Assembly (NCBI GenBank): GCA_049512315.1
Contig: JBEKXF010000003.1
Location: 1-64,000 of the forward strand
Direction: 5' to 3'
DNA from: Candidatus Aminicenantales bacterium
Lineage (GTDB): Bacteria > Acidobacteriota > Aminicenantia > Aminicenantales > Saccharicenantaceae
DNA: 64,000 nucleotides
The translations under genes were made by a program, and so were the position numbers. Of the stretch, positions 13,463-37,352 are shown one piece after another. Numbering within the stretch: the stretch's first letter is position 1; each line of letters begins with the position of its first letter. The notes beneath the pieces were generated by a model. The model searched no databases and was not told the origin of the DNA. It saw only the letters and a list, made by a program, of their open reading frames with translations.

Positions 13463-13687
13463 CCGAACCTTGGCGCCGCCTCTTTCGAGGCAATCGCTTG
13501 AGCCACGTGGCTCCGAACACGGCCAGAATCCCATGGGGTCGCCGGGCGGTCAATCACCCCCAGCGATGATTTCCGGAGTGAGAACGGGCCGTTTTTCTCA
13601 CCCCCAAAGGCTACCCCCCCCGCACCTTCCCTTCCGAAATGAAGGACGCTATAATGAGCCTTCAGCTCCGGACTTCCAGGAGGACGC

Positions 13688-18061: not shown

Positions 18062-18088
18062 GCGGGCGCGGACGCCCGAGGGGCGGAC

Positions 18089-18955: not shown

Positions 18956-19722
18956 TCTTCATCTTCGTCGCCATCGCCGGGCTCGTCTGGGGGAGCTTCC
19001 TCAACGTCGTCATCTATCGCCTCCCGCGGGAGATGAGCCTCGTCCGGCCTCCCTCCACCTGTCCCGGCTGCGGGGTGAGGATCAAGCCCTACGACAACGT
19101 CCCCGTTCTTTCCTTCCTTTGGCTCGGCGGGAAGTGCCGGAGCTGCGGCCGCGCGATCTCACCCGTCTACCCCCTGGTCGAGGCGCTCACGGCCTTGGGA
19201 TTCCTCCTTGTCTTCGGCCAGTCGGGCCGGGTCCTGGGCCTGGAGTTTTTCGCCGGCTGCCTGTTCACAAGCGCTCTCATCGCCCTCGGCTTCATCGATT
19301 ATTTCCACCAGGTCCTGCCGGACGCGATCACGCTCCCCGGCCTCGTCCTCGCTCTCGTCTACTCGTTTTTTCGAAACGACCTGACGTTCCGCGGCGCCCT
19401 CGTCGGCGCCGTGTCCGGTGCGGGCTTCCTGCTCCTCGTCTACGGCGTCTACCGCCTCATCCGGAAAAAGGAGGGGCTGGGGATGGGGGACGTAACCATG
19501 CTGCTGATGATCGGAGCCTACCTGGGGCTGCCGCGAACGCTCCTGACCCTGATCCTCGGCTCGTTCGTCGGCGCGCTCGTCGGGGTCTTCTTTATCGTCC
19601 GCCGGAAAAAGGACCTCCAGTTCGCCCTGCCCTTCGGGACGTTCCTGGCCCCGGCGGCCTTCATTTCGGCGCTCTGGGGCGAGAGGATCGTCAGTGCTTA
19701 CCTTCGCCTCTACCCCCGCTGA
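18943..19722 (+). CDS. pilD: Prepilin peptidase / N-methyltransferase
   Basis: GSFLNVVIYRLP, CPGC...NVPVLS...GKCRSC, GMGD, PFG.FL. Confidence 0.95.
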   Translation: MEALIFIFVAIAGLVWGSFLNVVIYRLPREMSLVRPPSTCPGCGVRIKPYDNVPVLSFLWLGGKCRSCGRAISPVYPLVEALTALGFLLVFGQSGRVLGLEFFAGCLFTSALIALGFIDYFHQVLPDAITLPGLVLALVYSFFRNDLTFRGALVGAVSGAGFLLLVYGVYRLIRKKEGLGMGDVTMLLMIGAYLGLPRTLLTLILGSFVGALVGVFFIVRRKKDLQFALPFGTFLAPAAFISALWGERIVSAYLRLYPR

Positions 19723-21128
19723 GCCCGGCGGCCGGCTCCCGTCCTTTCGATCGAAAAAACGCGTCTGGTCCCGGCCCTCACCTTGAATCCCTCGGCAACC
19801 GGGAGCCCGGGGACCCAGACGATCTCGCCTCGGGACAGGAAAACGGGGAGCCGGTCCCGGTCATCGCGGGCGACACCTTTGGCCCTCAGGATCTCCTTGA
19901 GTTTTTTCCGGCCGGGCGCGCCGAGCGGCCGATAGAGATCGCCCGGCCGTCGATTACGGACGACGAGCGGGAAGCGAAGCTTGGCCAGGTCGACGACGAC
20001 CCGACGGTGATCGTCCGCCTTGAGGGAAGGGATCTCCCCTTTCTCCATCCTGCGCCCGCGGAACGTCGCCCCCGCAGCCTTGATCTTCTGCCGGCCGTCC
20101 CAGCGCGTCTCGAAGCCCCGGGCGGCGGCTCTCCGGAGGAGCCGGAAGAGCCGGCCTTTTTCACGTCGGAGGACGAGGCCTTTCTTGACTGTCTTCTCCT
20201 TCCCGTCGCGGAGGCTGAGGACGGATTCGATATCCTCGAAGGAGACGGCCCGCAGGTCTCCCTTGAGCTCGCGGATGAACTCCCTGAGGATCCGCCGGGC
20301 CAGGGCCGGCGGCAGGAGCGAGAGCGTCCGGACATCGAGCGCGGCCTCCCCCCCGCTCCGGGAGATGAACTCTTCGGCCAGGGCGCGGACGAACCCCGCG
20401 AGGAGCGCGTCCTCTTCCCGGACGAGGGAAGAGAGCGACGCCAGGTGTTCGACGATCCGGGGCCCGTAGTCCCTCTCGAGCTCCGGGAGGAGCCCGAGGC
20501 GGATGCGGTTCCGGAGGAACCTCCGGTCGAGGTTGGAATCGTCGGTCCTGAAGCCCAGCCCCTCGTCGCGGAGATAGGCTTCGAGCTCCTCTCGCCGGAT
20601 CCCGAGGAGCGGCCGGATGACCGGACAGGCGGCGGGGCCGGAGACGGGCTCGATGCCGGCCAGGCCCGTCAGGCCCGTCCCCCGGAAAAGCCGTATGAGG
20701 AACGTCTCGGCCTGGTCGCTCATGGTGTGACCCGTGGCGATCTTGGTCGCGCCCGTCTTCCTGGCGGCCCGGCGCAGGAATTCGTAGCGCAGGAGGCGGG
20801 CCGCTTCCTCGAGGTTGATCTTCCTTCGCCGCGCTTCACCCCGGACGTCCTTCGAACCGGCGATGAGGGGGAGGACCCAGCGCCTCGTCAATTCCCGGAC
20901 GAACGCTTCGTCGTCCTTGGCTTCGGGGCGGATCCGGTGGTTGAAATGGGCGACGAAAACCTCGAGCGGCATCTCTTCGCGGAGCTTGAGCAGGAGGCTC
21001 GTCAGGGCCACGGAGTCGGGCCCGCCGGAGCAGGCGGCCAGGACCCGGTCGCCCGGGGCGATCATTCCGTGCCTGAGGACGGCGGCCTTGAAGGCCTGGA
21101 AAATGCGGCCCCTTCTCGTCTTGGACAT
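19710..21128 (-). CDS. tilS: tRNA(Ile)-lysidine synthetase
   Basis: SGGPDS PP-loop, HFNH, EEAAR..RY, ATGH..DQAET, RPLL, D.SN, RNRIR, TilS C-terminal domain. Confidence 0.95.
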   Translation of the reverse strand: MSKTRRGRIFQAFKAAVLRHGMIAPGDRVLAACSGGPDSVALTSLLLKLREEMPLEVFVAHFNHRIRPEAKDDEAFVRELTRRWVLPLIAGSKDVRGEARRRKINLEEAARLLRYEFLRRAARKTGATKIATGHTMSDQAETFLIRLFRGTGLTGLAGIEPVSGPAACPVIRPLLGIRREELEAYLRDEGLGFRTDDSNLDRRFLRNRIRLGLLPELERDYGPRIVEHLASLSSLVREEDALLAGFVRALAEEFISRSGGEAALDVRTLSLLPPALARRILREFIRELKGDLRAVSFEDIESVLSLRDGKEKTVKKGLVLRREKGRLFRLLRRAAARGFETRWDGRQKIKAAGATFRGRRMEKGEIPSLKADDHRRVVVDLAKLRFPLVVRNRRPGDLYRPLGAPGRKKLKEILRAKGVARDDRDRLPVFLSRGEIVWVPGLPVAEGFKVRAGTRRVFSIERTGAGRRAQRG

Positions 21129-21142
21129 GAGCTCATGAAAAA

Positions 21143-21216
21143 TGCCGGCGGAGGGATTTGAACCCCCGACACTGCGGATATGAGCCGCATGCTCTGACCA
21201 ACTGAGCTACGCCGGC
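21143..21216 (-). tRNA. tRNA with CAT anticodon, most likely elongator tRNA-Met; CCA not encoded
   Basis: GCCGGCG acceptor stem, TAGCTCAGTTGGTCAGAGC D-arm, TGCGG-CTCATAT-CCGCA anticodon arm, GGGGG-TTCAAAT-CCCTC T-arm, discriminator A. Confidence 0.93.
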
Positions 21217-21228
21217 AGGGTGAAGGAG

Positions 21229-21257
21229 ATTTTAGCGGAATCACCCGGTCAAGTCAA
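21229..21257 (-). promoter_or_regulatory. Sigma70-type promoter for tRNA-tilS
   Basis: TTGACT-17-TAAAAT, 12 nt upstream of the tRNA 5' end. Confidence 0.75.
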
Positions 21258-21279
21258 CGAACCGGGAGGGCGGGCGGCC

Positions 21280-22908
21280 TCACTGAAAGATGGCCTCGGT
21301 GTTTTCCTTCTTGAAGCTGTAGCGGCGGTCCCGGAAGAGCTTCATGCAGGCATCGACGACCCGCATGTCGTAGCGGATCCCGCGGCCCCGGCGGATCTCT
21401 TCCAGGGCTTTTTCGATGCCGAGGGCGGGGCGGTAGGGACGGTGGGAGGACAGGGCCTCGACGACGTCGGCCACGGCCAGGATCCTCGCCTCGAGGAGGA
21501 TGGCGTCCCCGAGCAGCCCGTCGGGGTAGCCGGTGCCGTCCATCCGCTCGTGGTGCTGGAGGATGATGTGGGCCACGGGCCAGGGGAACTGGATGTTCTT
21601 CAGGATGTCGTAGCCGATCCTCGGGTGGTCCTTGATCAGCTGGAACTCGGTCTTGGTCAGTCGCGTCGGCTTGGCCAGGATCTCGGCGGGCATGGCGATC
21701 TTGCCGATGTCGTGGATGATCCCGGCCAGCCGGAGCCCCTCAATCTTCTCCGAGGGAAGGTGGAGCTCTTCGGCGATGGCGACGGCCAGGCTGGACACGC
21801 GGCGCTGGTGGCCGGCCGTGTAGAGGTCCCGCATCTCGATGGTCAGGGACATGGCCCGGACGGTGCCCTCCAGGGCTTTCTCCAGCCGCTCGAGGGTGCT
21901 CTGGAGCTGGTCTTCCGCCCGGCGCGTCTCGATGACCCGCCCGCTGAGCTCCTCGTTGACCTTGTACAGTTCCTCGGTCCGCTTTTCGACCCGGTGCTCC
22001 AGCTCGTCCTTGGCCAGCCGGAGCTCCTTTTCCACGCGGCGGCGCTCGGCGATCTCCTTTTCGATGTCCAGGGACTTGGCGCGCATCATGTCCTCGAGCG
22101 ACTTGTTGATCCCTTCCATTTCCCGGAGGGCCTTTTCCAGTCCGTCAACCATGGTGTTGAAAGTCCGGGCCAGGACTCCCATCTCGTCTCGGGAATAGAC
22201 TTTGGCCCGCTGCTTGAGGTCGCCCTTCGCGATCTTCTCGGCCGTCCGCGTCACCAGGACCACGGGACGCGTGATCAGGCCGCTGAAAAGGAAGACGAGG
22301 AGCCCGCCGATGAAGAGGATGGCCAGGCAGACGAGCGTGATGGCACCCTTTTCCCTCGTCGTTTCCGCGATGAGGCCCTTGAAGGCGAACCCGAGGAAGA
22401 GATTTCCCAGGACCCGGTCGTCGGCCATGACGGGGGTCTTCGTCCTGTAGACGGTCCGCCGGCCGGGAGGTGGCTGGATGGGGTCGATTTCGCGATACAT
22501 ATCCCGTTCCGCGACGTCCCGGTTGGAGGACGCCAGGACCATTCCGGAGTCGTCTTCGAGGACGGCATACTCGATCCCGCCGGTGCGCTCGCAGCTCGCC
22601 TTGAGGACTCTCTCCATGGCGGCCTTGTCTCCCGCCTGGCGCTCCGTGGAAAGTCCCAACGAGGCGACCGAAGTGGTGTTGCTGATGATGTCCACGATAT
22701 CACGGGAGAGATGATGCTCCAGGCGGGCGGGAAAATAGAGGAGACAGAAGGCCGAAAGGCCCAATGTCAGGGAGGTTGCCAAGAGGAAGATCTTCGTCCG
22801 GAGCTTTCTCGGCCCGAGCCTGGCGGTCAGGCCCGGAGGTGGACCCGGATAATTGTTCGCGCTGAGCTCCGTCGGGGGACCCGAGCTTTCCAGGATATTA
22901 CGGTTCAT
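21280..22908 (-). CDS. Membrane HAMP + coiled-coil + HD-GYP cyclic-di-GMP phosphodiesterase
   Basis: Two TM segments around a periplasmic domain, HAMP (ITRPV..DEMGVLARTFN), HDIGK, HHERMDGTGYP, ARILAVAD, RPYR. Start codon uncertain. Confidence 0.88.
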   Translation of the reverse strand: MNRNILESSGPPTELSANNYPGPPPGLTARLGPRKLRTKIFLLATSLTLGLSAFCLLYFPARLEHHLSRDIVDIISNTTSVASLGLSTERQAGDKAAMERVLKASCERTGGIEYAVLEDDSGMVLASSNRDVAERDMYREIDPIQPPPGRRTVYRTKTPVMADDRVLGNLFLGFAFKGLIAETTREKGAITLVCLAILFIGGLLVFLFSGLITRPVVLVTRTAEKIAKGDLKQRAKVYSRDEMGVLARTFNTMVDGLEKALREMEGINKSLEDMMRAKSLDIEKEIAERRRVEKELRLAKDELEHRVEKRTEELYKVNEELSGRVIETRRAEDQLQSTLERLEKALEGTVRAMSLTIEMRDLYTAGHQRRVSSLAVAIAEELHLPSEKIEGLRLAGIIHDIGKIAMPAEILAKPTRLTKTEFQLIKDHPRIGYDILKNIQFPWPVAHIILQHHERMDGTGYPDGLLGDAILLEARILAVADVVEALSSHRPYRPALGIEKALEEIRRGRGIRYDMRVVDACMKLFRDRRYSFKKENTEAIFQ

Positions 22909-23056
22909 CGGATTATCAAGTGTCCACCGGATTCTCCACCAGATTACAGGAGCCACGGGACCGGACAATGCCCTTTGGGGGTGATTTCACGGGGTGAGAA
23001 TTCACCCCGAAAGGGGGGGCGGTTTCGATCCGGCCGTCGGCGCCCGGCGCGCTTCC

Positions 23057-25201
23057 CTAGTCGTTCTCGAGGGCGGCGGCAAGAACTTCGGCCGTATGCC
23101 TGACCTCCACGGCCCGGCCGCTCCGGGCGCAGCCGCCGCGGATCTGGAGGAGGCAGCCGGGGCAGTCCAGGGCGACGAGGGCGGCGCCCGAGGCCGTCAG
23201 GGCGGCCAGCTTGTCCGCGAGGAGCGCCTCGGCGACTTCGGGGTGGTCAACGGAGTAGGCCCCGGCGAAACCGCAGCAGGCCGCGGGGCCGGCCATCTCC
23301 ACGAGCTCGGTCCCCAGGGCCATCCGGACCAGGGTCCGGGAATCCTCTGATGCCTTAAGGACGTGCTTGTGGTGGCAGGAATCGTGGTAGGTCGCCCGCT
23401 TTCCGGTGCGGCCCTCGGGAAAGAGCCGCCGGAGGGCTTCTTTTTCACGACGGGCCAGGAACTGACTGAACGTCATGACCCGGCCGGCCAATTCCCTGAT
23501 ATCTTGAAAATCGTCCCCGTCGCCGTCCGCCGGGCGGCGCGACTTCGTTCCCCGATGTCTCAGGATGAGGTCGGGTCCGGCCTGGGCCAGCATGGTCGTG
23601 CAGGTCGGACAAAGAGTGATCACAGGCCCCTCGCCCTTGAGCCTCTTCAGGACGCTGCGGAAAGCCCTCCGGGCCGAAGCGGTGTGGCCGGAGTTCCAGG
23701 GCGGGAACCCGCAGCAGGTCGTGGGCCCGAGGACGACGTCGTAGCCGAGCCGGGCGAGGACGCGGGCCGCCGCCAGCCCGACTTCCGGGTAGACGTGCTG
23801 GACGAGGCATCCCGGAAAAAGCGTCACCCGCCCCTTCGGAGCCGGCATCTTCTTCCGCAGGACCCTCTTCTCTTTCCTGAAAAGGGCCGAGAGGGGCCGT
23901 GGGGCCGGCGCCGGGAGAGCCCGGAACCGGTCGTAGCGGGCCAGCCGCGACGGCAGGGCGCGGGCATATCCTTTCCTTTGGATGATCGGCCGGACCGCCC
24001 GCGCCGCGAGGAACGCTCCCCGGTTGAGGGTGGGATGCCCCATGACCCCGTCCAGCGCGATCTTCTTCCAGAATTTCCTTCCGGTCTCCCGGGCCAACCG
24101 TTCTTTCAGGGCCACGACCAGGTCGGCGATGGGGATCTTGGTCGAACAGACCGTGTCGCATCGGTGACATTCCATGCACAGCTCCGCCAGGTCCTTGGAT
24201 TTTTCGAGGCCGTGGATCCAGGCCGTGAGAAGGCTCCCGATACCGCCCATATAGACGTGCGAGAATTCTTCGCCGCCGATGACCTGATAGACCGGGCAGA
24301 CGTTGAGACAGGCCGAGCACTTGATGCACCGGAGGACGTCCCGGAACTTGGGGTCGGCCCGCAGCTCGCTCCGGTGATTGTCGAGAAGGATGATGTCTTG
24401 CTCCGACCGGTGCGGCCCGGCGATGAAGGAGACATAACTCGAGATGGGCTGGCCCGTGGCGCTTTTCGTCAGGATCTTGAGCAGGAGCAAGGCGTCGGCC
24501 GTGGCGGCCACGACTTTTTCCGTGCTTGCGAGGACGATGTGGACGGGCGGGGCCGTCGCGACCAGCCGCCCGTTGCCCTCGTTGGTGACGACCATAATCG
24601 AGCCGTTCTCGGCGACGAGGGCGTTGGCGCCCGTCAGCCCGACCGGAGATCCGAGGATCTCCCGCCTCAGCTCTTCCCGGGCCACCCGGACCAGGGCCGG
24701 GATGTCCCCCGGAACCTCGCGGCCCATGTGTTCCGAAAAGATCCGGGCGACGCCCTGGCGCGTCAGATGGATGGCCGGCATGACCATGTGGGTCGGCGCC
24801 TCCCCGGCGAGCTGGATGATCCACTCGCCGAGGTCGGTCTCCCGCGGTTCGACGCCGTGGCGGCTGAGATAGTCGTTGAGGCGGATCTCCTCGCTGACCA
24901 TGGACTTGGACTTGACGATCTTTTTCGCGCCGTGCCGCTCCAGGATCTCGAGGATAAGGCGGTTGGCCTCGTCTCCGTCCTTGGCCCGAAGGACGCGGCT
25001 GCCGTGCCGGACGGCCTGCTCCTCGAACCGGGCGAGCAAGCTGTCCTGGTTGGCGATGGCCTCGTCCTTGATCTCCGCCAGCGTTTCGCGGAGAGCTTCG
25101 AAATCCAGGCCCTGGAACGAACTTTCGCGCTTGGCGGACCAGCTCTCGTAGAAGGCCTGGAGCGTCGCCTTGAGACGGGGGTCGAGGGTTTTCATCTTCA
25201 T
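23057..25201 (-). CDS. lutB: LutB-LutA fusion (LUD + 2x[4Fe-4S] + two CCG domains), lactate dehydrogenase large-subunit type
   Basis: KSKSM.SEEI, ETDLGEWI.QL, H...PAIH, NEGN, CIKCSACLNVCP, CMECHRCDTVC, and two CCG domains (TCCG..CPTC; YHDSCH..CCGFAG..CPGC). Confidence 0.88.
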   Translation of the reverse strand: MKMKTLDPRLKATLQAFYESWSAKRESSFQGLDFEALRETLAEIKDEAIANQDSLLARFEEQAVRHGSRVLRAKDGDEANRLILEILERHGAKKIVKSKSMVSEEIRLNDYLSRHGVEPRETDLGEWIIQLAGEAPTHMVMPAIHLTRQGVARIFSEHMGREVPGDIPALVRVAREELRREILGSPVGLTGANALVAENGSIMVVTNEGNGRLVATAPPVHIVLASTEKVVAATADALLLLKILTKSATGQPISSYVSFIAGPHRSEQDIILLDNHRSELRADPKFRDVLRCIKCSACLNVCPVYQVIGGEEFSHVYMGGIGSLLTAWIHGLEKSKDLAELCMECHRCDTVCSTKIPIADLVVALKERLARETGRKFWKKIALDGVMGHPTLNRGAFLAARAVRPIIQRKGYARALPSRLARYDRFRALPAPAPRPLSALFRKEKRVLRKKMPAPKGRVTLFPGCLVQHVYPEVGLAAARVLARLGYDVVLGPTTCCGFPPWNSGHTASARRAFRSVLKRLKGEGPVITLCPTCTTMLAQAGPDLILRHRGTKSRRPADGDGDDFQDIRELAGRVMTFSQFLARREKEALRRLFPEGRTGKRATYHDSCHHKHVLKASEDSRTLVRMALGTELVEMAGPAACCGFAGAYSVDHPEVAEALLADKLAALTASGAALVALDCPGCLLQIRGGCARSGRAVEVRHTAEVLAAALEND

Positions 25202-25205
25202 GGGC

Positions 25206-25751
25206 TCAGCCGCAGCCTCCCTCGATCAGGCCGATAACGAGCCGGGCCGGTCCCTGGACGCCGATCGCGAGCTCGCATTCGATGTCGGCCGTCCGGCTCG
25301 GACCCGTGATGAAAGAGACCTGGGGGCCGGGCCGGCCCGGCCGGCCGAGGTGGTCCGAGATGACGCCGGCCAGGGACAGGAGGTCGGGGACGATCGCGCG
25401 GCGCTCGAGGAGGCAGACGCAGAGGGGCGGCAGCGTCCAAAGGAGCTTTTCCTCGTCCTCGGAATCGAGCCGGACGAGGGTTCCCGTTTCGGCCGCGCCG
25501 AAATCCGCGCGGACGACCCCGGCCTGGGCCGCGGCGATGCCGGCCGTCCCTCCGGGAATCCCGACGCGGAGGCCGGCGTCTTCCGCAGCTTTCCGGAGCG
25601 ATGGGCAGGTCAGGACCGTCCGGACCTTCTCCCGCTCGAAAAGACGGGCAGCGACGGCCAGGGCCTCGCCGACGTCGCGCGCCAGGAAGATCTCGGCTCC
25701 GGCGGCCTCGGCCCCGGCGACGAACCTGGCGGCGAGGTCCGGAGTCACCAT
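25206..25751 (-). CDS. lutC: LutC/YkgG LUD-domain protein
   Basis: AETGTL and FITGPSRTADIE..L.IGV.GP motifs. Confidence 0.88.
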   Translation of the reverse strand: MVTPDLAARFVAGAEAAGAEIFLARDVGEALAVAARLFEREKVRTVLTCPSLRKAAEDAGLRVGIPGGTAGIAAAQAGVVRADFGAAETGTLVRLDSEDEEKLLWTLPPLCVCLLERRAIVPDLLSLAGVISDHLGRPGRPGPQVSFITGPSRTADIECELAIGVQGPARLVIGLIEGGCG

Positions 25752-27067
25752 CGGCCGGCCTTTTTGGGTTCCATCTTGCGCAGGTCCAGGCCCCGCTCGT
25801 AGGCGCCGATCCGGTAGAGGCAGATCTCACGGAGCGAGGAGGGGTGGTGGAGGACCTCGGAGAGGGACTGACCGCCCGCAGCCCAGACTCCTCCGCCCCG
25901 GACGACGACCATCTTGTAATCATGAAGCAGGCGGATGAGCTCGGTCGCCGGAATGTCCGGCGGCGCGACGGGAATGACGAGGTAGAGGAACGAGCCTTCC
26001 GCGTCGACCGGGATGATCCGGTCCGAGGGCCCGGTCCCCCCGGGAGAGACGAAATGGGCCGAGGCCTCGGCCTCCGGGACGTAGCAGTGCATGACGGTCT
26101 GGAAATCGCTGGCTGCGTAGATCTCCTTGTGGAGCCTGACCTCCCGATGGTCCGCGGGGTCGATCTTCAGGGGGACACTGAGCAGGGGCCCGCCGATGTC
26201 ACGGGGCATGGACGCCTTGGGCGCGTAGAGCATCGCGTCCACGCCACGGACCGACATCGAGCCCGTGTGGAAGGGCGAGAGTCGGGATTCGAAGATCCTG
26301 TTCCCGGCTTTCCGGAACTCCGCGAGGATCTCCTCTTCGTCGGGAAAATCCAGGCGAGCGTCCTCGCCGTCTTCGAAGGCCGGCGGGGAGTAGGCGAACG
26401 CGCCGACCGGGTTAGCCCGGATCCGGCCCCTCAGCGCCTCGACATCGACGCCGAGCCGCCACAGGAGCCGGACGACGGCCCCGGCTTCGTTGGCGACGCA
26501 GAGCCTGAAGAAGGCCTCCTTGAGGGTCCTCCCCTTGGCCATCGCTCCGTGGCCGAAAATGATGGTCAGCGGATGCCCGGCCAGGCGCTCCGGAATGGTC
26601 TTCGTCATCTCCGGCGAGCCGCTGGGCACGGCGAACCAATCCACGGGGATGGCCGGGCCGAGAGAGTTATAGGCCAGGGGGTCCACGGGCTCGAAATCCG
26701 GCGGACGGGCGGGCTTGGGGGCGTCGACGAGCGTGGCTATGATCAGCTCCTTGACGTGGGCGTGCATCGAGGCCCGGACGCCGGGCAGGGCCAGGATCCG
26801 GGCGTGGATATCCGTTTCCGACGAGGCCTTGTAATAGCCGAAATCGGTTTCCGTCGGCGAGAGGAAGCAGATCTGGCTTGGCTCGAGGTCGCCCTTTTGG
26901 GACCCTGTGGCCGTAATGACGATTTGCTCTTCGCCCCTCTCGTCGGTCCAGCGGACGGCCATGTTCCCGCTGTGGCTGTCCTGAATGTCGTAGAGGAGGG
27001 ACGCCCTTCCCACGCCCTGGAACAAGCGCAGGAGCTCCTCGCTCGCCTTCCATTTTGGGGCGCTCAT
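25745..27067 (-). CDS. Tandem class II aldolase/adducin-domain protein
   Basis: Domain 1 has SGNM.VR, ITATG, ASSE..IH, HAH and GHG. Domain 2 repeats the fold with HCY and RGGG. Confidence 0.8.
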   Translation of the reverse strand: MSAPKWKASEELLRLFQGVGRASLLYDIQDSHSGNMAVRWTDERGEEQIVITATGSQKGDLEPSQICFLSPTETDFGYYKASSETDIHARILALPGVRASMHAHVKELIIATLVDAPKPARPPDFEPVDPLAYNSLGPAIPVDWFAVPSGSPEMTKTIPERLAGHPLTIIFGHGAMAKGRTLKEAFFRLCVANEAGAVVRLLWRLGVDVEALRGRIRANPVGAFAYSPPAFEDGEDARLDFPDEEEILAEFRKAGNRIFESRLSPFHTGSMSVRGVDAMLYAPKASMPRDIGGPLLSVPLKIDPADHREVRLHKEIYAASDFQTVMHCYVPEAEASAHFVSPGGTGPSDRIIPVDAEGSFLYLVIPVAPPDIPATELIRLLHDYKMVVVRGGGVWAAGGQSLSEVLHHPSSLREICLYRIGAYERGLDLRKMEPKKAGRW

Positions 27068-28920
27068 TTTTTCCTCGCTTCGATGCGGAGGGCCCGGAGG
27101 GACTCGGCCGTCGGCTTTCCCCCGCCGTCCCAGCCCCGGACCCGGTAATAGTCCTGCTTCATCCGGTCCTGGTCCTCTCGCGACACTCGCCGCTCCCTCC
27201 CCTCGGCGATGACCGGCAGGTCGGCGAAGCGCGGCGGGAGGGAGTCGTCGCCGGCCGTGGCGCCGGCTTCAATGTTAAAGAGCCGCTCGAGCGTCGCAAC
27301 CCGGTTGCCGATCTCTTCCAGCTTCGCCACCGAGAAATCGCGCCCGGTGACGCCGCTGACCATCCGGGCCCACGGGTCCGAAGAGAAGGCGTAACCGGTG
27401 AAGCGGCAGACGCCCAGGCAGTCCTGGAGGATGCCGGTGTTCTGCATGTTGCGGATGGCGATCGGCGACTGGAGGAGGCTGAACCGAGGGATCTCTTTCG
27501 TCCCGCCGAAAAACGCCAGCGAGACCGCGTATCCTCCGCGGAGGTGGCAGGCGCCGGTCGGCGAAGTCATGTAGCCGAGGGCCTGGGTGAAGGAAGCGCG
27601 CGGGTCGTACCCCGGGATCTCGAGTTTTTTCACGGTCATGGACAGACCCGGCCGACCGACCGAGGCCGCCAGGCGGTAGGAACCCTCCGCCAGCCTGTCC
27701 CCGATCCCTCGCCGGAAGGCCATGAGCGGGACGAGCGCCTCCAGGGCCGCGCCGTTCCCGAAGGAGAGGTCGAGCCCTCCCGTGTCCTCCTTCGTGAGGA
27801 GGCCGAGCTCGAAGAGCTCCATGGCGCAGGCGACCGTGCCGCCGTAGCTGATGGTGTCGATGCCGAGCTCATTGCAGCGGTAGTTGGCGCGGGTGACGGC
27901 GGCCATGTCGTAGATGTCGCAGACCGGACCCATGAGGACCATGGTTTCGTATTCGGGACCTTCTCCGGTCTGCTCGCCGCCGTCCCGGCCGGCGACCTTC
28001 GTATGGCGCTGACAGCCGATCGGGCAGAGGAAGCACGAGCCGGCCTTTTCCAGAAGCGTTTTGGTCAAGGTCTCGCCGGAGATCCGCTCGACGTCCTCAT
28101 CGCGATGGAGGCAGTCCCGGAAGTTCCTGTGGGGAAGCATGCTGATGAGGTTGATGAGCTCGACGAGGCCCGCGGTGCCGAGCTCGCGGAGGAGGCGCTT
28201 GGTGGCTGGCACCTGGCGCATCAGGTACAGGGCCTGATCGAGGCCCGCCTGGTATTTCTCCTTGTCTGCGACGGCGATCTTTTCCTTGCCGCGGACGCGG
28301 ACGGCCTTGAGCTTTTTGCTGCCCCAGACGGCGCCGGGGCCGCAGCGGCCGTAAACGCGGTTTCGGTCGTTGGCGACGGCGGCCAGCCGGACGAGGTTCT
28401 CGCCCGCCGGACCGATACAAAGGACACGGACGGGGCTCCCCGGTTCCGAAGCCGCGGCCAGGACGTCGTTCGTCTCGTGGGTCGACATTCCCCAGACGTG
28501 GCCTGCGGGAAGGATCTCAACCCGGCCCGGGGCGATGTCGACCATGACGGGTTCCGACGCCGCGCCCTTGACGACGAGGACGTCAAACCCCGTGGCCTTG
28601 AAGGCGGCGCCCCACGTGCCGCCGGAATTCGATGTTCCGATGACGCCGGTGAGCGGGGACTTGAAGACCATGTGGCCGCGCCCGGCCGTCGGGGCGTTGG
28701 TCCCGATCAGGGGTGATGCGGCGATGACGAAGGCATTCTCGGGACCGAGAGGATCGCACGCCGGGTCGATGGTATCGTAGAGGATCCGGGCCCCCAGGCC
28801 GCGGCCCCCCAGATAGTCAAGGGCGAGCTGAGGATCCAGCGGTTTCCGCAGAATGGTCCCCGTGGTCAGGTCGATTTCGAGGACCCGGCCGTGGAATCCG
28901 GGGATCGGGAAGCCGGACAT
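27064..28920 (-). CDS. aor: Aldehyde:ferredoxin oxidoreductase family protein (W/Mo-pterin)
   Basis: YLGGRGLG, KSPLTG, IGPAGEN, GR.G.GAV.GSK.LKA, CFLCPIGC, GPEYET, G.DTIS, YDPR, GACH, YY..RGW. Confidence 0.93.
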   Translation of the reverse strand: MSGFPIPGFHGRVLEIDLTTGTILRKPLDPQLALDYLGGRGLGARILYDTIDPACDPLGPENAFVIAASPLIGTNAPTAGRGHMVFKSPLTGVIGTSNSGGTWGAAFKATGFDVLVVKGAASEPVMVDIAPGRVEILPAGHVWGMSTHETNDVLAAASEPGSPVRVLCIGPAGENLVRLAAVANDRNRVYGRCGPGAVWGSKKLKAVRVRGKEKIAVADKEKYQAGLDQALYLMRQVPATKRLLRELGTAGLVELINLISMLPHRNFRDCLHRDEDVERISGETLTKTLLEKAGSCFLCPIGCQRHTKVAGRDGGEQTGEGPEYETMVLMGPVCDIYDMAAVTRANYRCNELGIDTISYGGTVACAMELFELGLLTKEDTGGLDLSFGNGAALEALVPLMAFRRGIGDRLAEGSYRLAASVGRPGLSMTVKKLEIPGYDPRASFTQALGYMTSPTGACHLRGGYAVSLAFFGGTKEIPRFSLLQSPIAIRNMQNTGILQDCLGVCRFTGYAFSSDPWARMVSGVTGRDFSVAKLEEIGNRVATLERLFNIEAGATAGDDSLPPRFADLPVIAEGRERRVSREDQDRMKQDYYRVRGWDGGGKPTAESLRALRIEARKK

Positions 28921-28926
28921 GCGCCT

Positions 28927-28955
28927 AAGATAACAGAAGCCCTACGAGGAGGCAA
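28927..28955 (-). promoter_or_regulatory. Sigma70-type promoter of aor, probably leaderless
   Basis: TTGCCT-17-TATCTT with an extended TG, then 6 nt, then ATG (28920); no SD. Confidence 0.6.
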
Positions 28956-28996
28956 GAAACCACTCGATAAGGTTAAGGTCGACTCCCGAGGCCGCC

Positions 28997-29272
28997 TTAT
29001 CCGCCGCCGAGGAAGGGGAAGACGGTCAGAGTGTCGCCGGCCTTGAGCTCGGTCTCGAGTCCGTGCAGGGATTGGATATGAATGCCGTTGACCATGATGA
29101 CGAGGTGGGGCTTGAGATCGGTCCCGGCGAAGATCTCCGCGCGGCGACCAGGCGAGTCGCAGAGGACGTCGAGGGCGTCACGGACGGTCCGGCCGTCGCC
29201 GATGTCCACGTCCCTCTCCCGGCCGTCGAAAACGTCCCGGAAATAGGCGAAGAACTTAGTTTTGATGATCAT
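28997..29272 (-). CDS. MoaD/ThiS-family ubiquitin-like sulfur carrier
   Basis: FFA.FR, VNG, L..GD...FP..GG C-terminus; 91 aa. Confidence 0.9.
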   Translation of the reverse strand: MIIKTKFFAYFRDVFDGRERDVDIGDGRTVRDALDVLCDSPGRRAEIFAGTDLKPHLVIMVNGIHIQSLHGLETELKAGDTLTVFPFLGGG

Positions 29273-29795
29273 GGGCTTTGGCCAGCCCGAGCAGGCTCTG
29301 GTCGAGAAGGCGCTGGGCGTTGGGGTCGCAGACGTCGATGATCAGGGGCATCGGGGCCCCGAGGAGCCTCGAGAGGTCTTCCAGGATCTCCTCCCTGGCC
29401 ACGAGCAGCGTTCTCATCCCGGGCTTGAAGACAACATCACGGAGGGCCGGCCAGAAGCCGCCCCCGGCGAGCTCCAAAGGCCCGACCTCGTCCACGATGA
29501 GGACTTCGGTGGGCTCGGCCGTCCGAATGAGCGAGCGGGCGACGTCCAAGGTCCGGGGCACGAAAAAGAAGGGTCCGATCCGCTCCCATTCGGGCTCCCC
29601 GGCCCGGCGGAGGAGAGGAAGACGGCGGCCGTCCTTGAGGTCCAGGAGATCGTACTCGACGGCCCCGGAACCGTCCCGGACGGCGATGCTCAGGAAGCCC
29701 CCGAACCCGAGCCCCTGCGAGGCCCACCAGGAGAGGGACTTCTGGATGAGCGTCGTCTTCCCGCCGCGCACGGGCCCGGAGAGGATGATGATCAT
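29256..29795 (-). CDS. THEP1/DUF2478-like P-loop NTPase
   Basis: SGPVRGGKTT Walker A, GGFLS, LIVDEVGPLEL.G.G. Confidence 0.8.
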   Translation of the reverse strand: MIIILSGPVRGGKTTLIQKSLSWWASQGLGFGGFLSIAVRDGSGAVEYDLLDLKDGRRLPLLRRAGEPEWERIGPFFFVPRTLDVARSLIRTAEPTEVLIVDEVGPLELAGGGFWPALRDVVFKPGMRTLLVAREEILEDLSRLLGAPMPLIIDVCDPNAQRLLDQSLLGLAKAHDHQN

Positions 29796-29827
29796 ATGGG
29801 CCGACGATCCTTTTTCCGCACGGTCCC

Positions 29828-31966
29828 CTACCGAATGAGAATCCGCGAATCGCCGGTCCCCAGGACGACCGTCTGACCGTTGACGCCGACGGCCGAATAG
29901 CTGGCGATGGAGACCGCCGTCTCACCCGGGTTCACGGACGTGAAGACCAGGACCGCCAGGATGCCCTGGCCCTTGAAGCCGTGGCCCAGATTCGGGCCGG
30001 AAAAGCCGAGAGTGCATCCGGAGGAGTTCTTGATGTTCAGGAACTGGGCCTTCTCTCCCATCTGCTTGGCGATCCCGCCTTCGATGACGTCCTTGAGCTT
30101 GAGGGCCTGGGGATTGAAGCCGATGTTGAGGGACATGTTGCCGAGCTCCTTTTCGGTTGAGAGCTCGACGTTGACCCGGAATTCCCTGTCCTTGGGGACC
30201 TCGAAGCTGGCCGGCGAGAGATAGATGGCGTTGGCGCCCGCGTCCTCGCCGGGTTCGGGAGGCTGGTTCTCGGCGACGCCGGCCGGATTCGACATCTCCT
30301 CTTCCCCCGCCCTCTGGCCGGCCGCTGATACGTCGGAGATGCTGTTGGGGTCCACCCAGAACGGCCGGGCATCCGCCTCCGTAAGCGGCAGGGTCCGGAT
30401 GATGTGGGGCGTGATGGTCAGGATGACGTCGGTCTGATCGATCACCGTCTCCGTGCTCGAGAACAGGTTGCCCAGGATCGGGATGTTCTTCAGGAAGGTG
30501 ATCCCGGAGATGGATTTCCGCTCCTCGTCCCGGAGGAGGCCGGCGAGGAGGTTGGTCTCGCCGTCCTTGAGGCGGATCGTGTTCTTGATCTCGCGAGTGT
30601 TGATGATCGGGATGTTCGCGACGGTACTCGCTCCGGCGAGGGAGGAGACCTTGATCTCGACGTCGAGGGTCACTTCCCTTTCCAGGTGGATCCGGGGTTT
30701 CATCTTGAGGTCGATCCCGACATCCTGCTGGGTGTAGCTGACGATTGGCTGGGTGTTGGTCCCGCCGGCCACGATCGGCGTGAATGACCCCTGAGGGATG
30801 GGGACCTTTTGCCCGACCAGGTATTTCATGTCCTCGCCGCTCAGGCCGCGGATCCGGGGCTGGGCGATGATCTTCGTGTTGGCGTCCCCTTCGAGGAATT
30901 GGACGACCGCCTGGGGGGTCGCGAGCTCGTAACTGGCCAGGCTCTTGAGGCTGAGGGCGTTCAGCCGGAGCCAGCCCGTCGCGCTTCCCTGCCCGCCTAC
31001 CGGGTTGAGCTGGACGGACAGGGTTGTGTTGCTGAAGTCGATCCCGAGCTTCCGGAGCATGCTCCGGTCGACTTCCATGATCTCGACGTCCACGATGACC
31101 TCCCCCTGGGGCTTGTCCCACGCACGGAGGAGCCTCTCGGCCAGGGCCACGACCTGGGGCGTATCACGGATCGTGATCGAGTTCAGGTTCTTGTCCACCC
31201 CGAGAGTCGGGATCTTGTACTGCGACTTGACCATCTGGACGAGCGGGGCCTGGACGTCCTGGGCGTTGATATTGGACAGGTAAAAGGTCCTGATGACGAG
31301 GAGCTCGTATTTCTGCCTCATCTGGATGTTGTCCGGGGCGATGATGACCGTCTTCTCGTCCACGATCCTGGAGAAGTTCTTGCTGGCGATGCAGAGATAA
31401 TTGATGGCCTGTTCGATATCCTTGCCCGTCAGGTCGACGGCCAGGCTCATGTCGCGGAACGTCTCGTCGTAGATGAACGTCACGCCGGCGATCCGCGCCA
31501 GGGTCTCGAAGATCGACCTCAGGGAGACCGGGGTCCGGAAGCTGATGCTCAGCTTTTCGACGGTGGGCTTGAGCTTGACCGGGGCCTCGGCGACCTCCGG
31601 GGAGGGCTTTTCCGGCTTTGAGGGAGGGGCCTCCAAGGCCTTCATCTCTTCGGCGATCGACCGGTTGAAAGGGTCGTAGAAAAGGGCGATGCCGTATTCC
31701 GTTTTGGCGTCCTTTTTCTTCCCACCGGCCGCGAGCGTCCGGGCGTTCTCGAGATGAACTAAACTGGCGGCGGCTTTCGCCCGGAACAAGGCGAGCCGGT
31801 AAACCGATTCCTTCGGGTTTTCGGCGGCGGCCTGCTCATAGTATTTGATGGCCATGTCATACTGCTTATTCAGCTCGGCGGATACGCCCAACCGATAGCT
31901 GTGGGTAAGAGTCGCACATCCCCCGAGCGTCACCACCAGGGCCAGCATAAGGGCGATTTTTTTCAT
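29828..31966 (-). CDS. Secretin (GspD/PilQ family) lipoprotein with N-terminal TPR and C-terminal cohesin-like domain
   Basis: Lipobox LGGC, TPR helices, N-domain, secretin core (DVGI, LKDGET..AGL, IPILGNLF, ITPHII), terminal beta-sandwich (FNPQAL..G.G.LA.L.F). Confidence 0.88.
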   Translation of the reverse strand: MKKIALMLALVVTLGGCATLTHSYRLGVSAELNKQYDMAIKYYEQAAAENPKESVYRLALFRAKAAASLVHLENARTLAAGGKKKDAKTEYGIALFYDPFNRSIAEEMKALEAPPSKPEKPSPEVAEAPVKLKPTVEKLSISFRTPVSLRSIFETLARIAGVTFIYDETFRDMSLAVDLTGKDIEQAINYLCIASKNFSRIVDEKTVIIAPDNIQMRQKYELLVIRTFYLSNINAQDVQAPLVQMVKSQYKIPTLGVDKNLNSITIRDTPQVVALAERLLRAWDKPQGEVIVDVEIMEVDRSMLRKLGIDFSNTTLSVQLNPVGGQGSATGWLRLNALSLKSLASYELATPQAVVQFLEGDANTKIIAQPRIRGLSGEDMKYLVGQKVPIPQGSFTPIVAGGTNTQPIVSYTQQDVGIDLKMKPRIHLEREVTLDVEIKVSSLAGASTVANIPIINTREIKNTIRLKDGETNLLAGLLRDEERKSISGITFLKNIPILGNLFSSTETVIDQTDVILTITPHIIRTLPLTEADARPFWVDPNSISDVSAAGQRAGEEEMSNPAGVAENQPPEPGEDAGANAIYLSPASFEVPKDREFRVNVELSTEKELGNMSLNIGFNPQALKLKDVIEGGIAKQMGEKAQFLNIKNSSGCTLGFSGPNLGHGFKGQGILAVLVFTSVNPGETAVSIASYSAVGVNGQTVVLGTGDSRILIR

Positions 31967-32457
31967 GGCCGGTCTCCTTGTCGGGCAAACGTCTTCCGTT
32001 CCGAGCTCGGTCCCCCGACCTCGATCTCGTCGGGAGTGACGCGAAGGACCTTGTATCCGGGAATGATCTCGTCGCCCTCGGCAACGGAGATCGTCTGGCC
32101 GTCTTTCAGGACCAGGGCCACGATCTTTCCGGCGGCCCGGACCGAGCCGACATAGACGAGGTTCAGGGCGAAAGCGGGCGGCTCATCGGCCGGGGCCCGC
32201 CCTTTCCGGGGCGGGGCCTTGACCGACGGGCCTTGAGGCGAAGCCGGCTGGGCGTAAGCCAGGGGGCGGAAAATGTCGCGGCGCGGGGGGACGATCTCTC
32301 CCTGGCCGAAGGTCAGAAGGTCCTTGCGGATGAGGGGCCTGCTTTCCTTGACTGAGGGGGTCCGGGCCTTGTCCTTTTGGGCGGCGGGAAGGGCGGAAGC
32401 CAGGCAGAAGGCCACAAGGACGAGGAGGAGCCGCCGGAGCGGGCTGTCAGATCTCAT
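31963..32457 (-). CDS. Pilus/T2SS accessory protein (PilP/GspC-like)
   Basis: Signal or anchor, RDIFRP, L.YVG...VAEGD.I..Y.V.RV; located between pilO and the secretin. Confidence 0.6.
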   Translation of the reverse strand: MRSDSPLRRLLLVLVAFCLASALPAAQKDKARTPSVKESRPLIRKDLLTFGQGEIVPPRRDIFRPLAYAQPASPQGPSVKAPPRKGRAPADEPPAFALNLVYVGSVRAAGKIVALVLKDGQTISVAEGDEIIPGYKVLRVTPDEIEVGGPSSERKTFARQGDRP

Positions 32458-33007
32458 AATACCCCGCCAGTGTCATCTTGAGACTCAGGAGGCCGCTTTC
32501 GGCGTTCGCTTTCTCAAAGTCGATCTTCTCGACGGCCAGGAATTTTTTGAACTTCTCCACGATGCCTAGGAACCTCTTGAGGTCGCCGTAGGTTCCAGAG
32601 TAACTGAACGTGACGGCGATTTTCTTGATCGGAACCTTTTCCAGGTCGGAATAGTGGTAGCTGATGAGGGGGACGTTCATTCCCGCCTGGCTGAAGATCT
32701 GCTGGAGGTCCATCCGGAGCGTCCGGAAGACGGTTTTTTCGTCGTAAAAAAACGTGCCTTTGAAGGAATCCATGTCCCGGATGGCCTCCTGCCAGCGAGC
32801 CCACTCGGCTTTCGCATCCGTCCGGGCTATTTGGACCTTCCGGTAACTGTTATGGAGCGCGGCCAGCGAGTCGCGGGCCTCGAAATAACTCGACCTTTGC
32901 CGCATGGTCAGGACGAGTCCCAGGGCCAGGGCGAAGAGGACCGCCGCGGTTAGACGCATGAGCGTCCTCTTTTCCTTGTCGTGGAGCCGGCTAAATATCG
33001 CGCTCAT
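32447..33007 (-). CDS. pilO: PilO/GspM-like protein
   Basis: Single TM, coiled coil, G.Y.DL.RFL..VE motif. Confidence 0.75.
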   Translation of the reverse strand: MSAIFSRLHDKEKRTLMRLTAAVLFALALGLVLTMRQRSSYFEARDSLAALHNSYRKVQIARTDAKAEWARWQEAIRDMDSFKGTFFYDEKTVFRTLRMDLQQIFSQAGMNVPLISYHYSDLEKVPIKKIAVTFSYSGTYGDLKRFLGIVEKFKKFLAVEKIDFEKANAESGLLSLKMTLAGYYEI

Positions 33008-33554
33008 AGGTCAGGGAGATCTCCGAGACAAGCTGGTCCTCGTCCTCCCGGGATTCATTCTCGAACCGGTACTTGAATTTCCGGGCGTTGAGGTTGTTGA
33101 GGAACGTCAGGAGGTCGTCCAGGCCGCGGGACACGACCTTGATCCTGAGAATGATCGTCCGGTCGCCCGAAAAATTCGGGACGAGCGACGTGATGTAGAG
33201 GGAATCCGGGAGCGCGGCTTCGAGCTGCGAAAGGAAGCCGGTCCAGGAAAAGCTCTTCTGGAGGATGATGGCGTTGATGAGGTTGGCCTTGTCCCCGCCC
33301 GCCAGCTTCTCCTTGTCGGCATCGGCAGACAGGCGTCTCTCCTCCTGGCCGGCCGCGTCCACGAGCCTGGCCGTCTCGGCCAGCGAGGCCTTGAGCCGGA
33401 CTGTCTGGAGGCCGTACTTGACGGCCGCGAACGCCGAAAGGCCGAGCAAGACGACAAGGGCCGCGGTCAGGACGTTCCGCGACAGGAGATAGAAGCTCCG
33501 GTTCCTCGCCGGCCGGCTGGCCAGGTTCAAATAGAGCGACCGGTTCCCGCTCAT
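32991..33554 (-). CDS. pilN: PilN-like protein
   Basis: LNLASRP, single TM, coiled coil, SW..FL..LE..LP..L.ITSL.P; ATGA overlap with the upstream gene. Confidence 0.75.
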   Translation of the reverse strand: MSGNRSLYLNLASRPARNRSFYLLSRNVLTAALVVLLGLSAFAAVKYGLQTVRLKASLAETARLVDAAGQEERRLSADADKEKLAGGDKANLINAIILQKSFSWTGFLSQLEAALPDSLYITSLVPNFSGDRTIILRIKVVSRGLDDLLTFLNNLNARKFKYRFENESREDEDQLVSEISLTYERDI

Positions 33555-36087: not shown

Positions 36088-36108
36088 GCCGCTTCACCCG
36101 CGGGCCTT

Positions 36109-37317: not shown

Positions 37318-37352
37318 CTTGGGAAACGCCCCTGATAACAAATTTTGTCTTT

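Follow-up and report, generated by a model that had tools for sequence, protein, structure and literature searches.

A recurrent gene pair of aldehyde:ferredoxin oxidoreductase and tandem class II aldolase in Aminicenantales as a candidate end-pathway for 6-deoxyhexoses

The window analysed here is a 64,000-nucleotide (nt) stretch of an Aminicenantes metagenome-assembled genome (MAG), Candidatus Aminicenantales bacterium GCA_049512315.1, and is part of contig C3 (JBEKXF010000003.1) of this 3.55-Mb assembly, which is 96.6% complete. Its open reading frame (ORF) listing contains six co-oriented genes on the minus strand, running from position 29795 down to 23057, for an NTPase, a MoaD-like protein, an aldehyde:ferredoxin oxidoreductase (AOR), a tandem class II aldolase-like protein, a LutC-like protein, and a LutB/A fusion. 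AOR and aldolase are the conserved core of this operon and constitute an ancient two-gene module, with the Lut genes being an accessory of some lineages that lies outside that core. Judged from sequence and comparative genomics, the operon is probably a ferredoxin-linked end-pathway for 6-deoxyhexoses, in which the lactaldehyde half of rhamnose or fucose would be converted to pyruvate without NAD. The six genes, with the matches that identify them, are as follows.

29256..29795, minus strand: NTPase_1 (THEP1-like) gene (Pfam NTPase_1, 63.3 bits)
28997..29272, minus strand: MoaD/ThiS-like small sulfur-carrier protein (Pfam ThiS, 46.7 bits; NCBIfam SAMP1, 65.4 bits with a cut-off of 60, and moaD_arch, 60 bits with a cut-off of 49.5)
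27064..28920, minus strand: AOR of the canonical AOR clade, 618 aa (AFOR_N, 237.8 bits; AFOR_C, 394.9 bits)
25745..27067, minus strand: tandem class II aldolase-like protein, 440 aa (Pfam Aldolase_II, 101.1 bits, in two stretches)
25206..25751, minus strand: LutC-like small LUD-domain subunit, 181 aa (LUD_dom, 81.6 bits)
23057..25201, minus strand: LutB–LutA fusion, LdhH/LldH-like L-lactate dehydrogenase large subunit, 714 aa (LUD, 142.2 bits; Fer4_8, 51.2 bits; CCG, 97 bits in two stretches)

An initial annotation of this DNA had given the same gene positions and orientation, including the MoaD-like and NTPase genes upstream of AOR; the ORF list agrees with it exactly, and the domain matches bear out both upstream genes. 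Read directly, the AOR stop codon overlaps the aldolase start codon in ATGA, and the LutC start overlaps the aldolase stop in ATGGTGA, the overlap being 7 nt, or 4 nt should GTG be the start codon. The gap between the MoaD stop and the AOR start is 76 nt. Across all six genes, G+C content is 0.84–0.87 at third codon positions vs 0.38–0.54 at second positions, the pattern expected of real genes, in a window of 58%–67% G+C. The genes are presumably co-transcribed. A promoter and terminator scan of 22500–30500 returned one promoter-like site (shuffle mean 0.6) and eight terminator-like sites (4.6 in shuffles), none placed at a gene boundary so as to define a transcript. An Rfam scan of 18000–36000 at E ≤0.1 found no molybdenum or tungsten cofactor (Moco/Tuco) riboswitch, its sole match being a tRNA at 21143–21216.

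Conservation and make-up of the AOR–aldolase pair

Homologues of the window genes were located by tblastn in a related set of 78 genome–contig loci. Adjacency was taken to mean that no more than 700 nt separate the end of AOR from the aldolase downstream of it, both genes being on one strand, and was counted in loci with at least 1900 nt upstream. By this measure AOR lies directly upstream of the aldolase in 63 of 64 loci, with a tblastn end-to-start offset of −1 in 27. Aldolase relatives at 61%–88% identity come from Aminicenantes MAGs, and a protein atlas gave no clusters other than those of the protein itself in Aminicenantes and Acidobacteriota. An exhaustive search of representatives yields 350 aldolase relatives at E ≤0.001, among them full-length tandem proteins at 26%–51% identity; some of the sources of these distant proteins are, by name, Planctomycetota, Desulfobacterales, and divergent Aminicenantales. 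A metagenome scan queried with distant tandem members only gave a further 80 loci with a G+C content of 31%–71%, whose aldolases are 25%–38% identical to that of the window. Of the 47 metagenome loci whose upstream flank measures at least 2100 nt, 46 again have AOR directly ahead of the aldolase; the 33 shorter loci comprise 22 with a cut AOR piece at the contig edge and 11 with less than 1300 nt upstream. Pairwise distances of AOR and aldolase are correlated over 94 loci (r 0.88, a value that none of 999 permutations reached), which is consistent with co-inheritance as a unit; shared species history contributes to this figure, which is not proof of interaction. Gene order and overlaps, domains, conserved motifs, and the conservation and genomic company of the pair are all direct observations.

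The AOR protein has the AFOR_N plus AFOR_C architecture at scores far over the respective cut-offs (29.8 and 27). Its best solved relatives are 9mqx (467.8 bits), 1aor (454.4), and 9g7j (452.2), with Aromatoleum AorB (8c0z) at 378 bits, and it is closer to AOR proper than to FOR (265 bits), WOR5 (190), BamB (169), or GAPOR (45). Columns C290, C293, C297, C494, E312, and H448 (numbered after the homologue at locus L111) are invariant in 38 aldolase-paired AORs, including that of the window; we take these four Cys, one Glu, and one His to correspond to the residues that ligate the [4Fe-4S] cluster and form the active site in P. furiosus AOR. The longer AORs (approximately 675 aa) of a FucI-linked group also match AOR proper best (312.7 bits). 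A Pfam search of the operon found no genes for AorA/AorC-type electron-transfer subunits. The enzyme is proposed to be a lactaldehyde oxidase that works with ferredoxin.

The aldolase is filed in the class II aldolase superfamily, and not as FucA or RhaD, on the strength of its sequence: no NCBIfam model for either enzyme matches it at E up to 0.001. An alignment of 51 sequences shows the N-domain residues H32-S33-G34-N35, T52, G55, S82, E84, H88, H102, H104, H173, and G174 to be either invariant or conserved in at least 90% of members. Presumably, this set corresponds to the phosphate site, catalytic Glu, and three metal His of E. coli FucA (FucA H92, H94, H155, and E73). In the C-domain, the His ligands are conserved in none of the 51 aligned members, and the window protein reads H-C-Y and G-G-G at the His places; this domain has conserved motifs of its own (T268-G269-S270, S272, P288, H313, P353, D355, E357, G391, and G393). 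The protein thus appears to be a tandem of one intact N-domain and one degenerate C-domain, that is, a fused pseudo-dimer.

An AlphaFold2 model of the aldolase (pLDDT 92.6, pTM 0.93) has as its best Foldseek match the T. thermophilus FucA structure 2fk5 (E 7e-12), with a TM score to the target of 0.82–0.84. Both halves of the model resemble FucA-type structures, and each match spans about half of the model (TM score to the query ≤0.39). FucA and RhaD structures are among the matches, as are the 5-deoxyribulose-1-phosphate aldolases 6btg and 6btd, and no solved tandem form is among the matches listed. What the initial annotation had called a tandem class II aldolase keeps its two Aldolase_II stretches and a FucA fold, but the protein is divergent, one half is degenerate, and it falls below all FucA and RhaD cut-offs.

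Many members share a conserved tail at the aldolase C terminus (window 25745–25790), which reads ...MEPxKAxRW in Aminicenantes, ...RGKxW in a group of 410-aa proteins, and ...FEPx in a group of 470-aa proteins; this tail could cover an active site or contact AOR. In a few of the distant loci, AOR is followed by a single-domain aldolase with the same best family, PRK08660. At one of them, locus L125 (L125:5206-7600), the tandem protein is replaced after AOR by a PRK08660-type aldolase of one domain (202 aa, 204 bits, cut-off 203), whose gene adjoins those for RhaA and an alpha-L-rhamnosidase. The L125 arrangement suggests that the tandem form arose from this single-domain family.

Deoxyhexose genes, the proposed pathway, and its rivals

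To view the company of the pair beyond its own lineage, 25 of the 80 metagenome loci were picked for long flanks and for spread over aldolase clusters, and up to three genes per side were considered (119 proteins), with selected ones compared with NCBIfam. Deoxyhexose genes stand beside the AOR–aldolase pair in 11 of these 25 loci. Fucose isomerase is encoded at L148 (FucI, 1104.8 bits with a cut-off of 775) and L137, with a FucI-like protein at L144. FGGY kinases resembling rhamnulokinase are found at L144, L148, L162, L145, L138, L111, L167, and L137; the five that were tested are closest to rhamnulokinase at 289–502 bits, all under the cut-off of 527.95. RhaA and a rhamnosidase adjoin the pair at L125, a rhamnosidase does so at L179, and a GH95 fucosidase at L165.

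The phyletic pattern was followed in a class sample of 101 Aminicenantia genomes of at least 80% completeness, which are kin and not independent. At a best E of ≤1e-30, the tandem aldolase is present in 44 of them. RhaA occurs in 27 genomes, 26 of which carry the aldolase, and a strong FucI-like match (at least 79 bits) occurs in 22, of which 20 carry it; among the 57 genomes without the aldolase, three have RhaA or a strong FucI-like match. Relatives (at least 60% identity) of a RhaD-like protein encoded on contig C32 of the host genome occur in only five class genomes, four of them among the 27 with RhaA. The Aldolase_II repertoire of 41 genomes of the same family consists of an AraD-like protein and the tandem aldolase, with a RhaD-like protein in four. 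Since RhaD-like proteins are so rare, the tandem protein is the only visible candidate for a rhamnulose-1-phosphate aldolase within the Aldolase_II superfamily in most RhaA-bearing relatives. The co-occurrence pattern supports the view that it fills the RhaD gap of class genomes bearing RhaA and RhaB.

The host genome holds three Aldolase_II genes, three AOR-family genes, and one LUD pair. Besides the tandem and the RhaD-like gene, the Aldolase_II set includes AraD (326.9 bits, cut-off 257), in a ribulokinase–AraD–isomerase cluster. On contig C2, rhaB, rhaA (639.4 bits, cut-off 572), and an alpha-L-rhamnosidase gene stand together, with no aldolase and no lactaldehyde enzyme in that cluster. 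Rhamnose isomerase and kinase, which the initial annotation had named as genes to look for in the genome, are accordingly both present. Fucose isomerase and mtnA had been named as well: MtnA is encoded (442.4 bits, cut-off 279), as is MtnP (283.7 bits, cut-off 274.85), but a FucI-like gene on contig C42 reaches only 102 bits vs a cut-off of 775, stands beside a GMP synthase fragment and no sugar genes, and is weak evidence for fucose use.

The proposed pathway would begin with RhaA and RhaB, encoded elsewhere in the genome, which would make a ketose-1-phosphate from L-rhamnose and possibly from L-fucose; in other lineages, FucI and a kinase would make the deoxyketose-1-phosphate. The tandem aldolase would then cleave the ketose-1-phosphate to dihydroxyacetone phosphate (DHAP) and L-lactaldehyde. 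AOR would oxidise lactaldehyde to L-lactate with reduction of ferredoxin, and LutC plus LutB/A (LldGH/LdhH type), where present, would oxidise lactate to pyruvate. We infer every substrate, the direction of the AOR reaction, and the electron acceptors. The tandem aldolase is accordingly proposed to be a rhamnulose- or fuculose-1-phosphate aldolase coupled to AOR, its cleavage reaction being suggested by gene company and by the RhaD gap. The same route from aldolase to pyruvate had been put forward in the initial annotation, and comparative genomics supports it through the pairing of the two genes, their rhamnose and fucose company, the RhaD gap, and the Lut genes beside the aldolase. Published passages on related enzymes include the in vitro oxidation of lactaldehyde, among other aldehydes, by E. 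limosum WOR1 (PMC11725836) and a MAG-based proposal that AORs detoxify rhamnose-derived lactaldehyde (PMC9324843).

The proposed chemistry has precedents, and the module is a ferredoxin- and tungsten-linked counterpart of a known NAD-linked pathway, built from different parts, rather than a new kind of system. In the end-pathway of E. coli, FucA or RhaD, then AldA, and then LldD convert the ketose-1-phosphate to DHAP and L-lactaldehyde, lactaldehyde to lactate, and lactate to pyruvate. AldA is NAD-dependent and acts aerobically; anaerobically, lactaldehyde is reduced to propanediol. Proposed chemistry and aldolase fold are shared with this pathway, but the window aldolase, unlike FucA and RhaD, fails the equivalog cut-offs and is a fused pseudo-dimer. 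Compared with canonical AORs (P. furiosus 1aor, Aromatoleum AorB 8c0z, and E. limosum WOR1), the window AOR has the same two Pfam domains and keeps the Cys, Glu, and His columns. Those enzymes are, however, treated as broad-range scavengers without a dedicated aldehyde-producing partner gene, whereas the window AOR is locked to one aldolase gene.

The closest characterised analogue is RhaEW, described in passages of PMC3870299 as a class II-like aldolase fused to an NAD-dependent lactaldehyde dehydrogenase (B. subtilis YuxG and Chloroflexus aurantiacus Caur_2283). The same passages report that RhaR regulons of some Actinomycetales and Rhodobacterales hold lldD or lldEFG besides RhaEW, and that no DHAP and no lactate could be detected when RhaEW was assayed in vitro without NAD. 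In both systems, as far as these passages describe RhaEW, a class II-like aldolase is tightly joined to a lactaldehyde oxidiser, with a LutABC-type extension to pyruvate in some lineages. RhaEW is, however, a single polypeptide whose dehydrogenase half is an NAD-dependent short-chain enzyme, whereas the window oxidase is a separate, tungsten-type, ferredoxin-linked AOR. The second half of the window aldolase is a degenerate aldolase domain, with no adh_short domain, and the resemblance is thus functional only. The searched literature, in which one of the phrases used misses the colon spelling of the enzyme name, contains no description of an AOR–aldolase operon or pairing. The initial annotation had regarded the gene combination as undescribed; within that literature this stands for the AOR–aldolase operon, but RhaEW with lldEFG, its NAD-dependent analogue, has been published, to judge from the same passages of PMC3870299.

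Several observations weigh against a deoxyhexose end-pathway. The aldolase lies below every FucA/RhaD equivalog cut-off, its best family being PRK08660 'aldolase' (124.8 vs 203 bits), and its best solved sequence relative is aq_1979 (E 1.5e-6). The host genome encodes the RhaD-like protein on C32 (152.1 bits, cut-off 170), whose gene is not among sugar genes, as well as one Fe-ADH and two Aldedh proteins that could handle lactaldehyde. The score of LutB/A against NF045670 (731.6 bits) is below the cut-off of 800. In its own lineage, the operon is flanked by pilus genes and an HD-GYP gene, outside sugar genes; the sugar link is drawn from distant homologues and from co-occurrence among non-independent kin. 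Among the sampled distant loci, 9 of 25 are without a sugar-related neighbour, and RhaA and a strong FucI-like match are both missing from 15 of the 44 class genomes that bear the aldolase. At locus L167 the pair is accompanied by a canonical FucA-like gene, which leaves room for an aldolase other than the tandem protein. Finally, tandem aldolases without AOR upstream occur at L063 and L114, the exceptions among the 64 related and the 47 metagenome loci, respectively. The aldolase follows genes for a class V aminotransferase and a D-2-hydroxyacid dehydrogenase in the former (L063:6917-8836), and genes for a heptose-type PfkB kinase, a cytidylyltransferase, and a heptosyltransferase in the latter (L114:6929-8167).

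Other substrates have also been considered. In a DHAP shunt, the aldolase would cleave methylthioribulose-1-phosphate or 5-deoxyribulose-1-phosphate produced by MtnP and MtnA, and AOR would oxidise the resulting methylthioacetaldehyde or acetaldehyde. Both enzymes score above their cut-offs in the host genome and no MtnB was found there, the three Aldolase_II genes being AraD-like, RhaD-like, and tandem; the N-domain is weakly similar to the MtnB family (43.8 bits vs a cut-off of 137), and speD is within the window. Aldolases of this kind (Ald2 and DrdA; 6btg and 6btd) share with the window protein a class II fold, that of enzymes releasing DHAP and a small aldehyde, and both structures are among its fold matches. 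The pair differs from them in having no mtnA, mtnK, or mtnP company in the 25 distant loci and a phyletic pattern that does not follow MtnA. MtnA is above its cut-off in 98 of the 101 class genomes vs 44 for the aldolase, at least 50 genomes having MtnA without it, and IF-2B or PNP_UDP_1 domains are found in none of the 119 neighbour proteins. No such neighbours were found in Aminicenantes loci among the genes searched for, and acetate or methylthioacetate as product leaves the attached lactate dehydrogenase unexplained. Because MtnA does not track the aldolase and mtn neighbours are absent, the S-adenosylmethionine (SAM) by-product sugar that the initial annotation had offered as an alternative substrate is disfavoured, and we consider it improbable. 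As a separate observation, MtnP without an MtnB-type dehydratase in this genome, together with near-universal MtnA in the class, raises the question of the fate of methylthioribulose-1-phosphate.

FucI/FucK/FucA-type enzymes also process D-arabinose to glycolaldehyde. This counts for a reading in which the aldolase cleaves a pentulose-1-phosphate (such as D-ribulose-1-phosphate or L-xylulose-1-phosphate), with glycolate as an AOR product that the LUD/CCG enzyme then oxidises. Such a reading could draw on a weak similarity of LutB/A to GlcF (101.5 bits vs a cut-off of 333) and a weak match of the N-domain to the haloarchaeal ribulose-1-phosphate aldolase family (30.3 bits vs 300). LutB/A is, however, far nearer to LdhH and to LutB than to GlcF, the neighbours in distant loci are RhaA, rhamnosidase, GH95 fucosidase, and bona fide FucI, and in its own class the aldolase co-occurs with RhaA; a glycolaldehyde route seems very unlikely. 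The tandem protein might instead be no metabolic aldolase at all and serve as a structural, maturation, or regulatory partner of AOR, with the aldehyde coming from elsewhere. Near-universal AOR adjacency regardless of the surrounding genes, the overlap of the two genes, the degeneracy of one half in 51 of 51 aligned members, the separate canonical FucA-like gene at L167, and the weakly supported complex predicted for the L111 pair (below) would all suit such a role. A scaffold would, however, not need the metal, acid/base, and phosphate-site residues, all of which the N-domain keeps across 25%–89% identity. Single-domain PRK08660-type aldolases fill the same place after AOR, as at L125 beside RhaA and rhamnosidase, and most RhaA-bearing relatives are without another candidate aldolase. 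An accessory role is thus unlikely, and deoxyketose-1-phosphate cleavage coupled to lactaldehyde oxidation is the preferred reading.

AOR and the tandem aldolase might further bind each other as a complex, in which the metal-less C-domain might dock or gate and toxic lactaldehyde might be passed directly to the tungsten site. Aldol cleavage would then be pulled, or even gated, by the oxidase, as is reported for RhaEW, for which DHAP did not form without NAD (PMC3870299). The near-universal adjacency of the two genes, whose stop and start codons often overlap, and the co-varying divergence of both proteins count in favour of this. Complex prediction was run on the homologous L111 pair, which adjoins a rhamnulokinase-like gene, with alignments built for this analysis, for which the benchmark counts hold only roughly. 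The pair scores 0.47 (runs of 0.50, 0.44, and 0.47), with the best of three controls at 0.00, a verdict of weak support; at least 93% of contacts are common to the runs, and partner pLDDT is at least 87. Of 157 solved complexes in the benchmark, 116 reach the mark, as do 2 of 215 mismatched pairs, and scores of ≤0.60 that reach it include only 18 of the 157 solved complexes and both passing mismatches. The prediction slightly raises the odds of a complex without establishing one, and a complex of this kind is a tentative possibility.

Lut genes as an accessory extension

The two Lut genes of the window are the only LUD genes of the genome, and its lactate permease is on a contig other than that of the operon. 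LutB/A, with LUD, 4Fe-4S dicluster, and two CCG domains, and a LutC-like partner gene whose stop lies 4 nt upstream of its start together have the LutABC/LldGH architecture. LutB/A matches NCBIfam NF045670 (quin_L_LdhH) end to end (model positions 12–706 of 706) and scores 356.9 bits against TIGR00273 (LutB), not reaching the cut-off of 444.8. The pair thus resembles LldGH/LdhH and LutABC (NF045670 and TIGR00273) in joining a small LutC-like LUD protein to a LUD/4Fe-4S/2xCCG protein. It differs from LldGH/LdhH in its score under 800 and in being attached to an aldolase–AOR pair rather than to a lactate permease or por/pta/ack genes.

A downstream census covered the 59 related loci with at least 2800 nt downstream of the aldolase. 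LutC followed by LutB/A comes directly after the aldolase in 18 of these, LutC only in 3 (so that a LutC-like gene adjoins the aldolase in 21 of 59), the HD-GYP gene in 17, and other genes in 21. The initial annotation had treated AOR, aldolase, and Lut genes as one cluster; AOR and aldolase are its conserved core, to which the Lut genes do not belong. LUD is patchy in the class: in nine genomes (G000, G015, G055, G057, G081, G085, G097, G039, and G047), no more than 10 kb of the same contig separates the aldolase from a pair of LutC-like and LutB/A genes, and no LUD genes were found in eight sampled genomes of genus g2, all eight of which bear the aldolase. Where such a Lut pair exists in the order, its place is beside the aldolase. 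In Saccharicenans-type relatives (locus L067 and genomes G055, G081, and G085), genes for a prismane/hybrid-cluster protein and a methyltransferase split LutC from an enlarged LutB/A of 837 aa. At L067:9543-16288, for instance, LutC comes after the aldolase and is followed by the prismane/HCP and methyltransferase genes before LutB/A. The order aldolase, LutC, LdhH recurs at L133, from an unrelated lineage of 39% G+C, in which LutB/A (949.6 bits) passes the cut-off of 800. Presumably, the Lut add-on turns lactate, otherwise the excreted end product, into pyruvate.

Genomic setting and biological meaning

Upstream of the operon is a pilus secretin cluster, and downstream come the HD-GYP gene, a tRNA, and tilS. 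This placement of the AOR operon, between pilus/secretion genes and the HD-GYP and tilS genes, is a conserved synteny in Aminicenantes. The flanking type IV pilus/type II secretion cluster (window 29828–37341 and 18943–19722) includes genes for a secretin bearing TPRs, a T2SSM_b-like protein, a T2SSE ATPase, and a T2SSF platform protein; a prepilin peptidase gene lies across the operon from them. In most Aminicenantes loci, the NTPase gene has the secretin gene on one side and the MoaD gene on the other, and it is a syntenic companion in Aminicenantes only, being found beside the pair in none of the 25 sampled distant loci except for one opposite-strand tblastn match in L174. The sole hint of cofactor supply for a tungsto-bispyranopterin AOR is the adjacent MoaD-like gene, whose product probably serves pterin cofactor supply for this enzyme; the NTPase perhaps does so as well.

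Elsewhere in the window, speD (SAM decarboxylase) is found at 45154–45633 (136.8 bits, cut-off 75.65), as the initial annotation had it, and an agmatinase gene at 12483–13553 (219.4 bits, cut-off 174.3); both are polyamine synthesis genes and by position are unrelated to the operon. A sugar ABC transporter at 6334–9876 matches no specific equivalog (RhaS 89 bits vs a cut-off of 342) and was not used as evidence. The genome has two further AOR-family genes. One encodes a 612-aa AOR (C8:67830-71522; locus L089:7830-11522) and precedes a ThiS-like gene and a gene of the aldehyde dehydrogenase family; an amino-acid permease gene is close by, and this is a different AOR module of the same genome. 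The other (C30:61161-63128; L090:10161-12128, minus strand) has one in-frame TGA within its AFOR_C match, which may stand for selenocysteine, reflect a sequencing error, or mark a pseudogene; its neighbours encode an EPSP-synthase-fold protein, a Cys/Met pyridoxal phosphate (PLP) enzyme, and homoserine dehydrogenase. Sequencing runs listed with this DNA are peat and sediment metagenomes, with no RNA run among them.

AOR-family tungstoenzymes are widespread in anaerobes, but a physiological substrate has been assigned for almost none of them, and they are usually labelled broad-range aldehyde scavengers. A pair that recurs in fucose and rhamnose loci gives one AOR clade a concrete candidate substrate, L-lactaldehyde. 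If true, the proposal would fill a hole in metabolic models of anaerobes that have deoxyhexose catabolism to lactaldehyde but lack a reductase, dehydrogenase, or microcompartment; a gap of this kind in the fate of lactaldehyde is described, in passages of the preprint concerned, for candidate 'Zymogenia' genomes (bioRxiv 10.1101/2021.03.22.436540). Should AOR and aldolase also form a complex, it would be a cytosolic, ferredoxin-linked alternative to the lactaldehyde microcompartment and would give the whole AOR clade a physiological substrate. The pathway itself would yield low-potential reduced ferredoxin, plus pyruvate where Lut is present, where the usual route excretes propanediol, and for Aminicenantes, a group abundant in both peat and sediment, the predicted fermentation balance and hydrogen yield would change.

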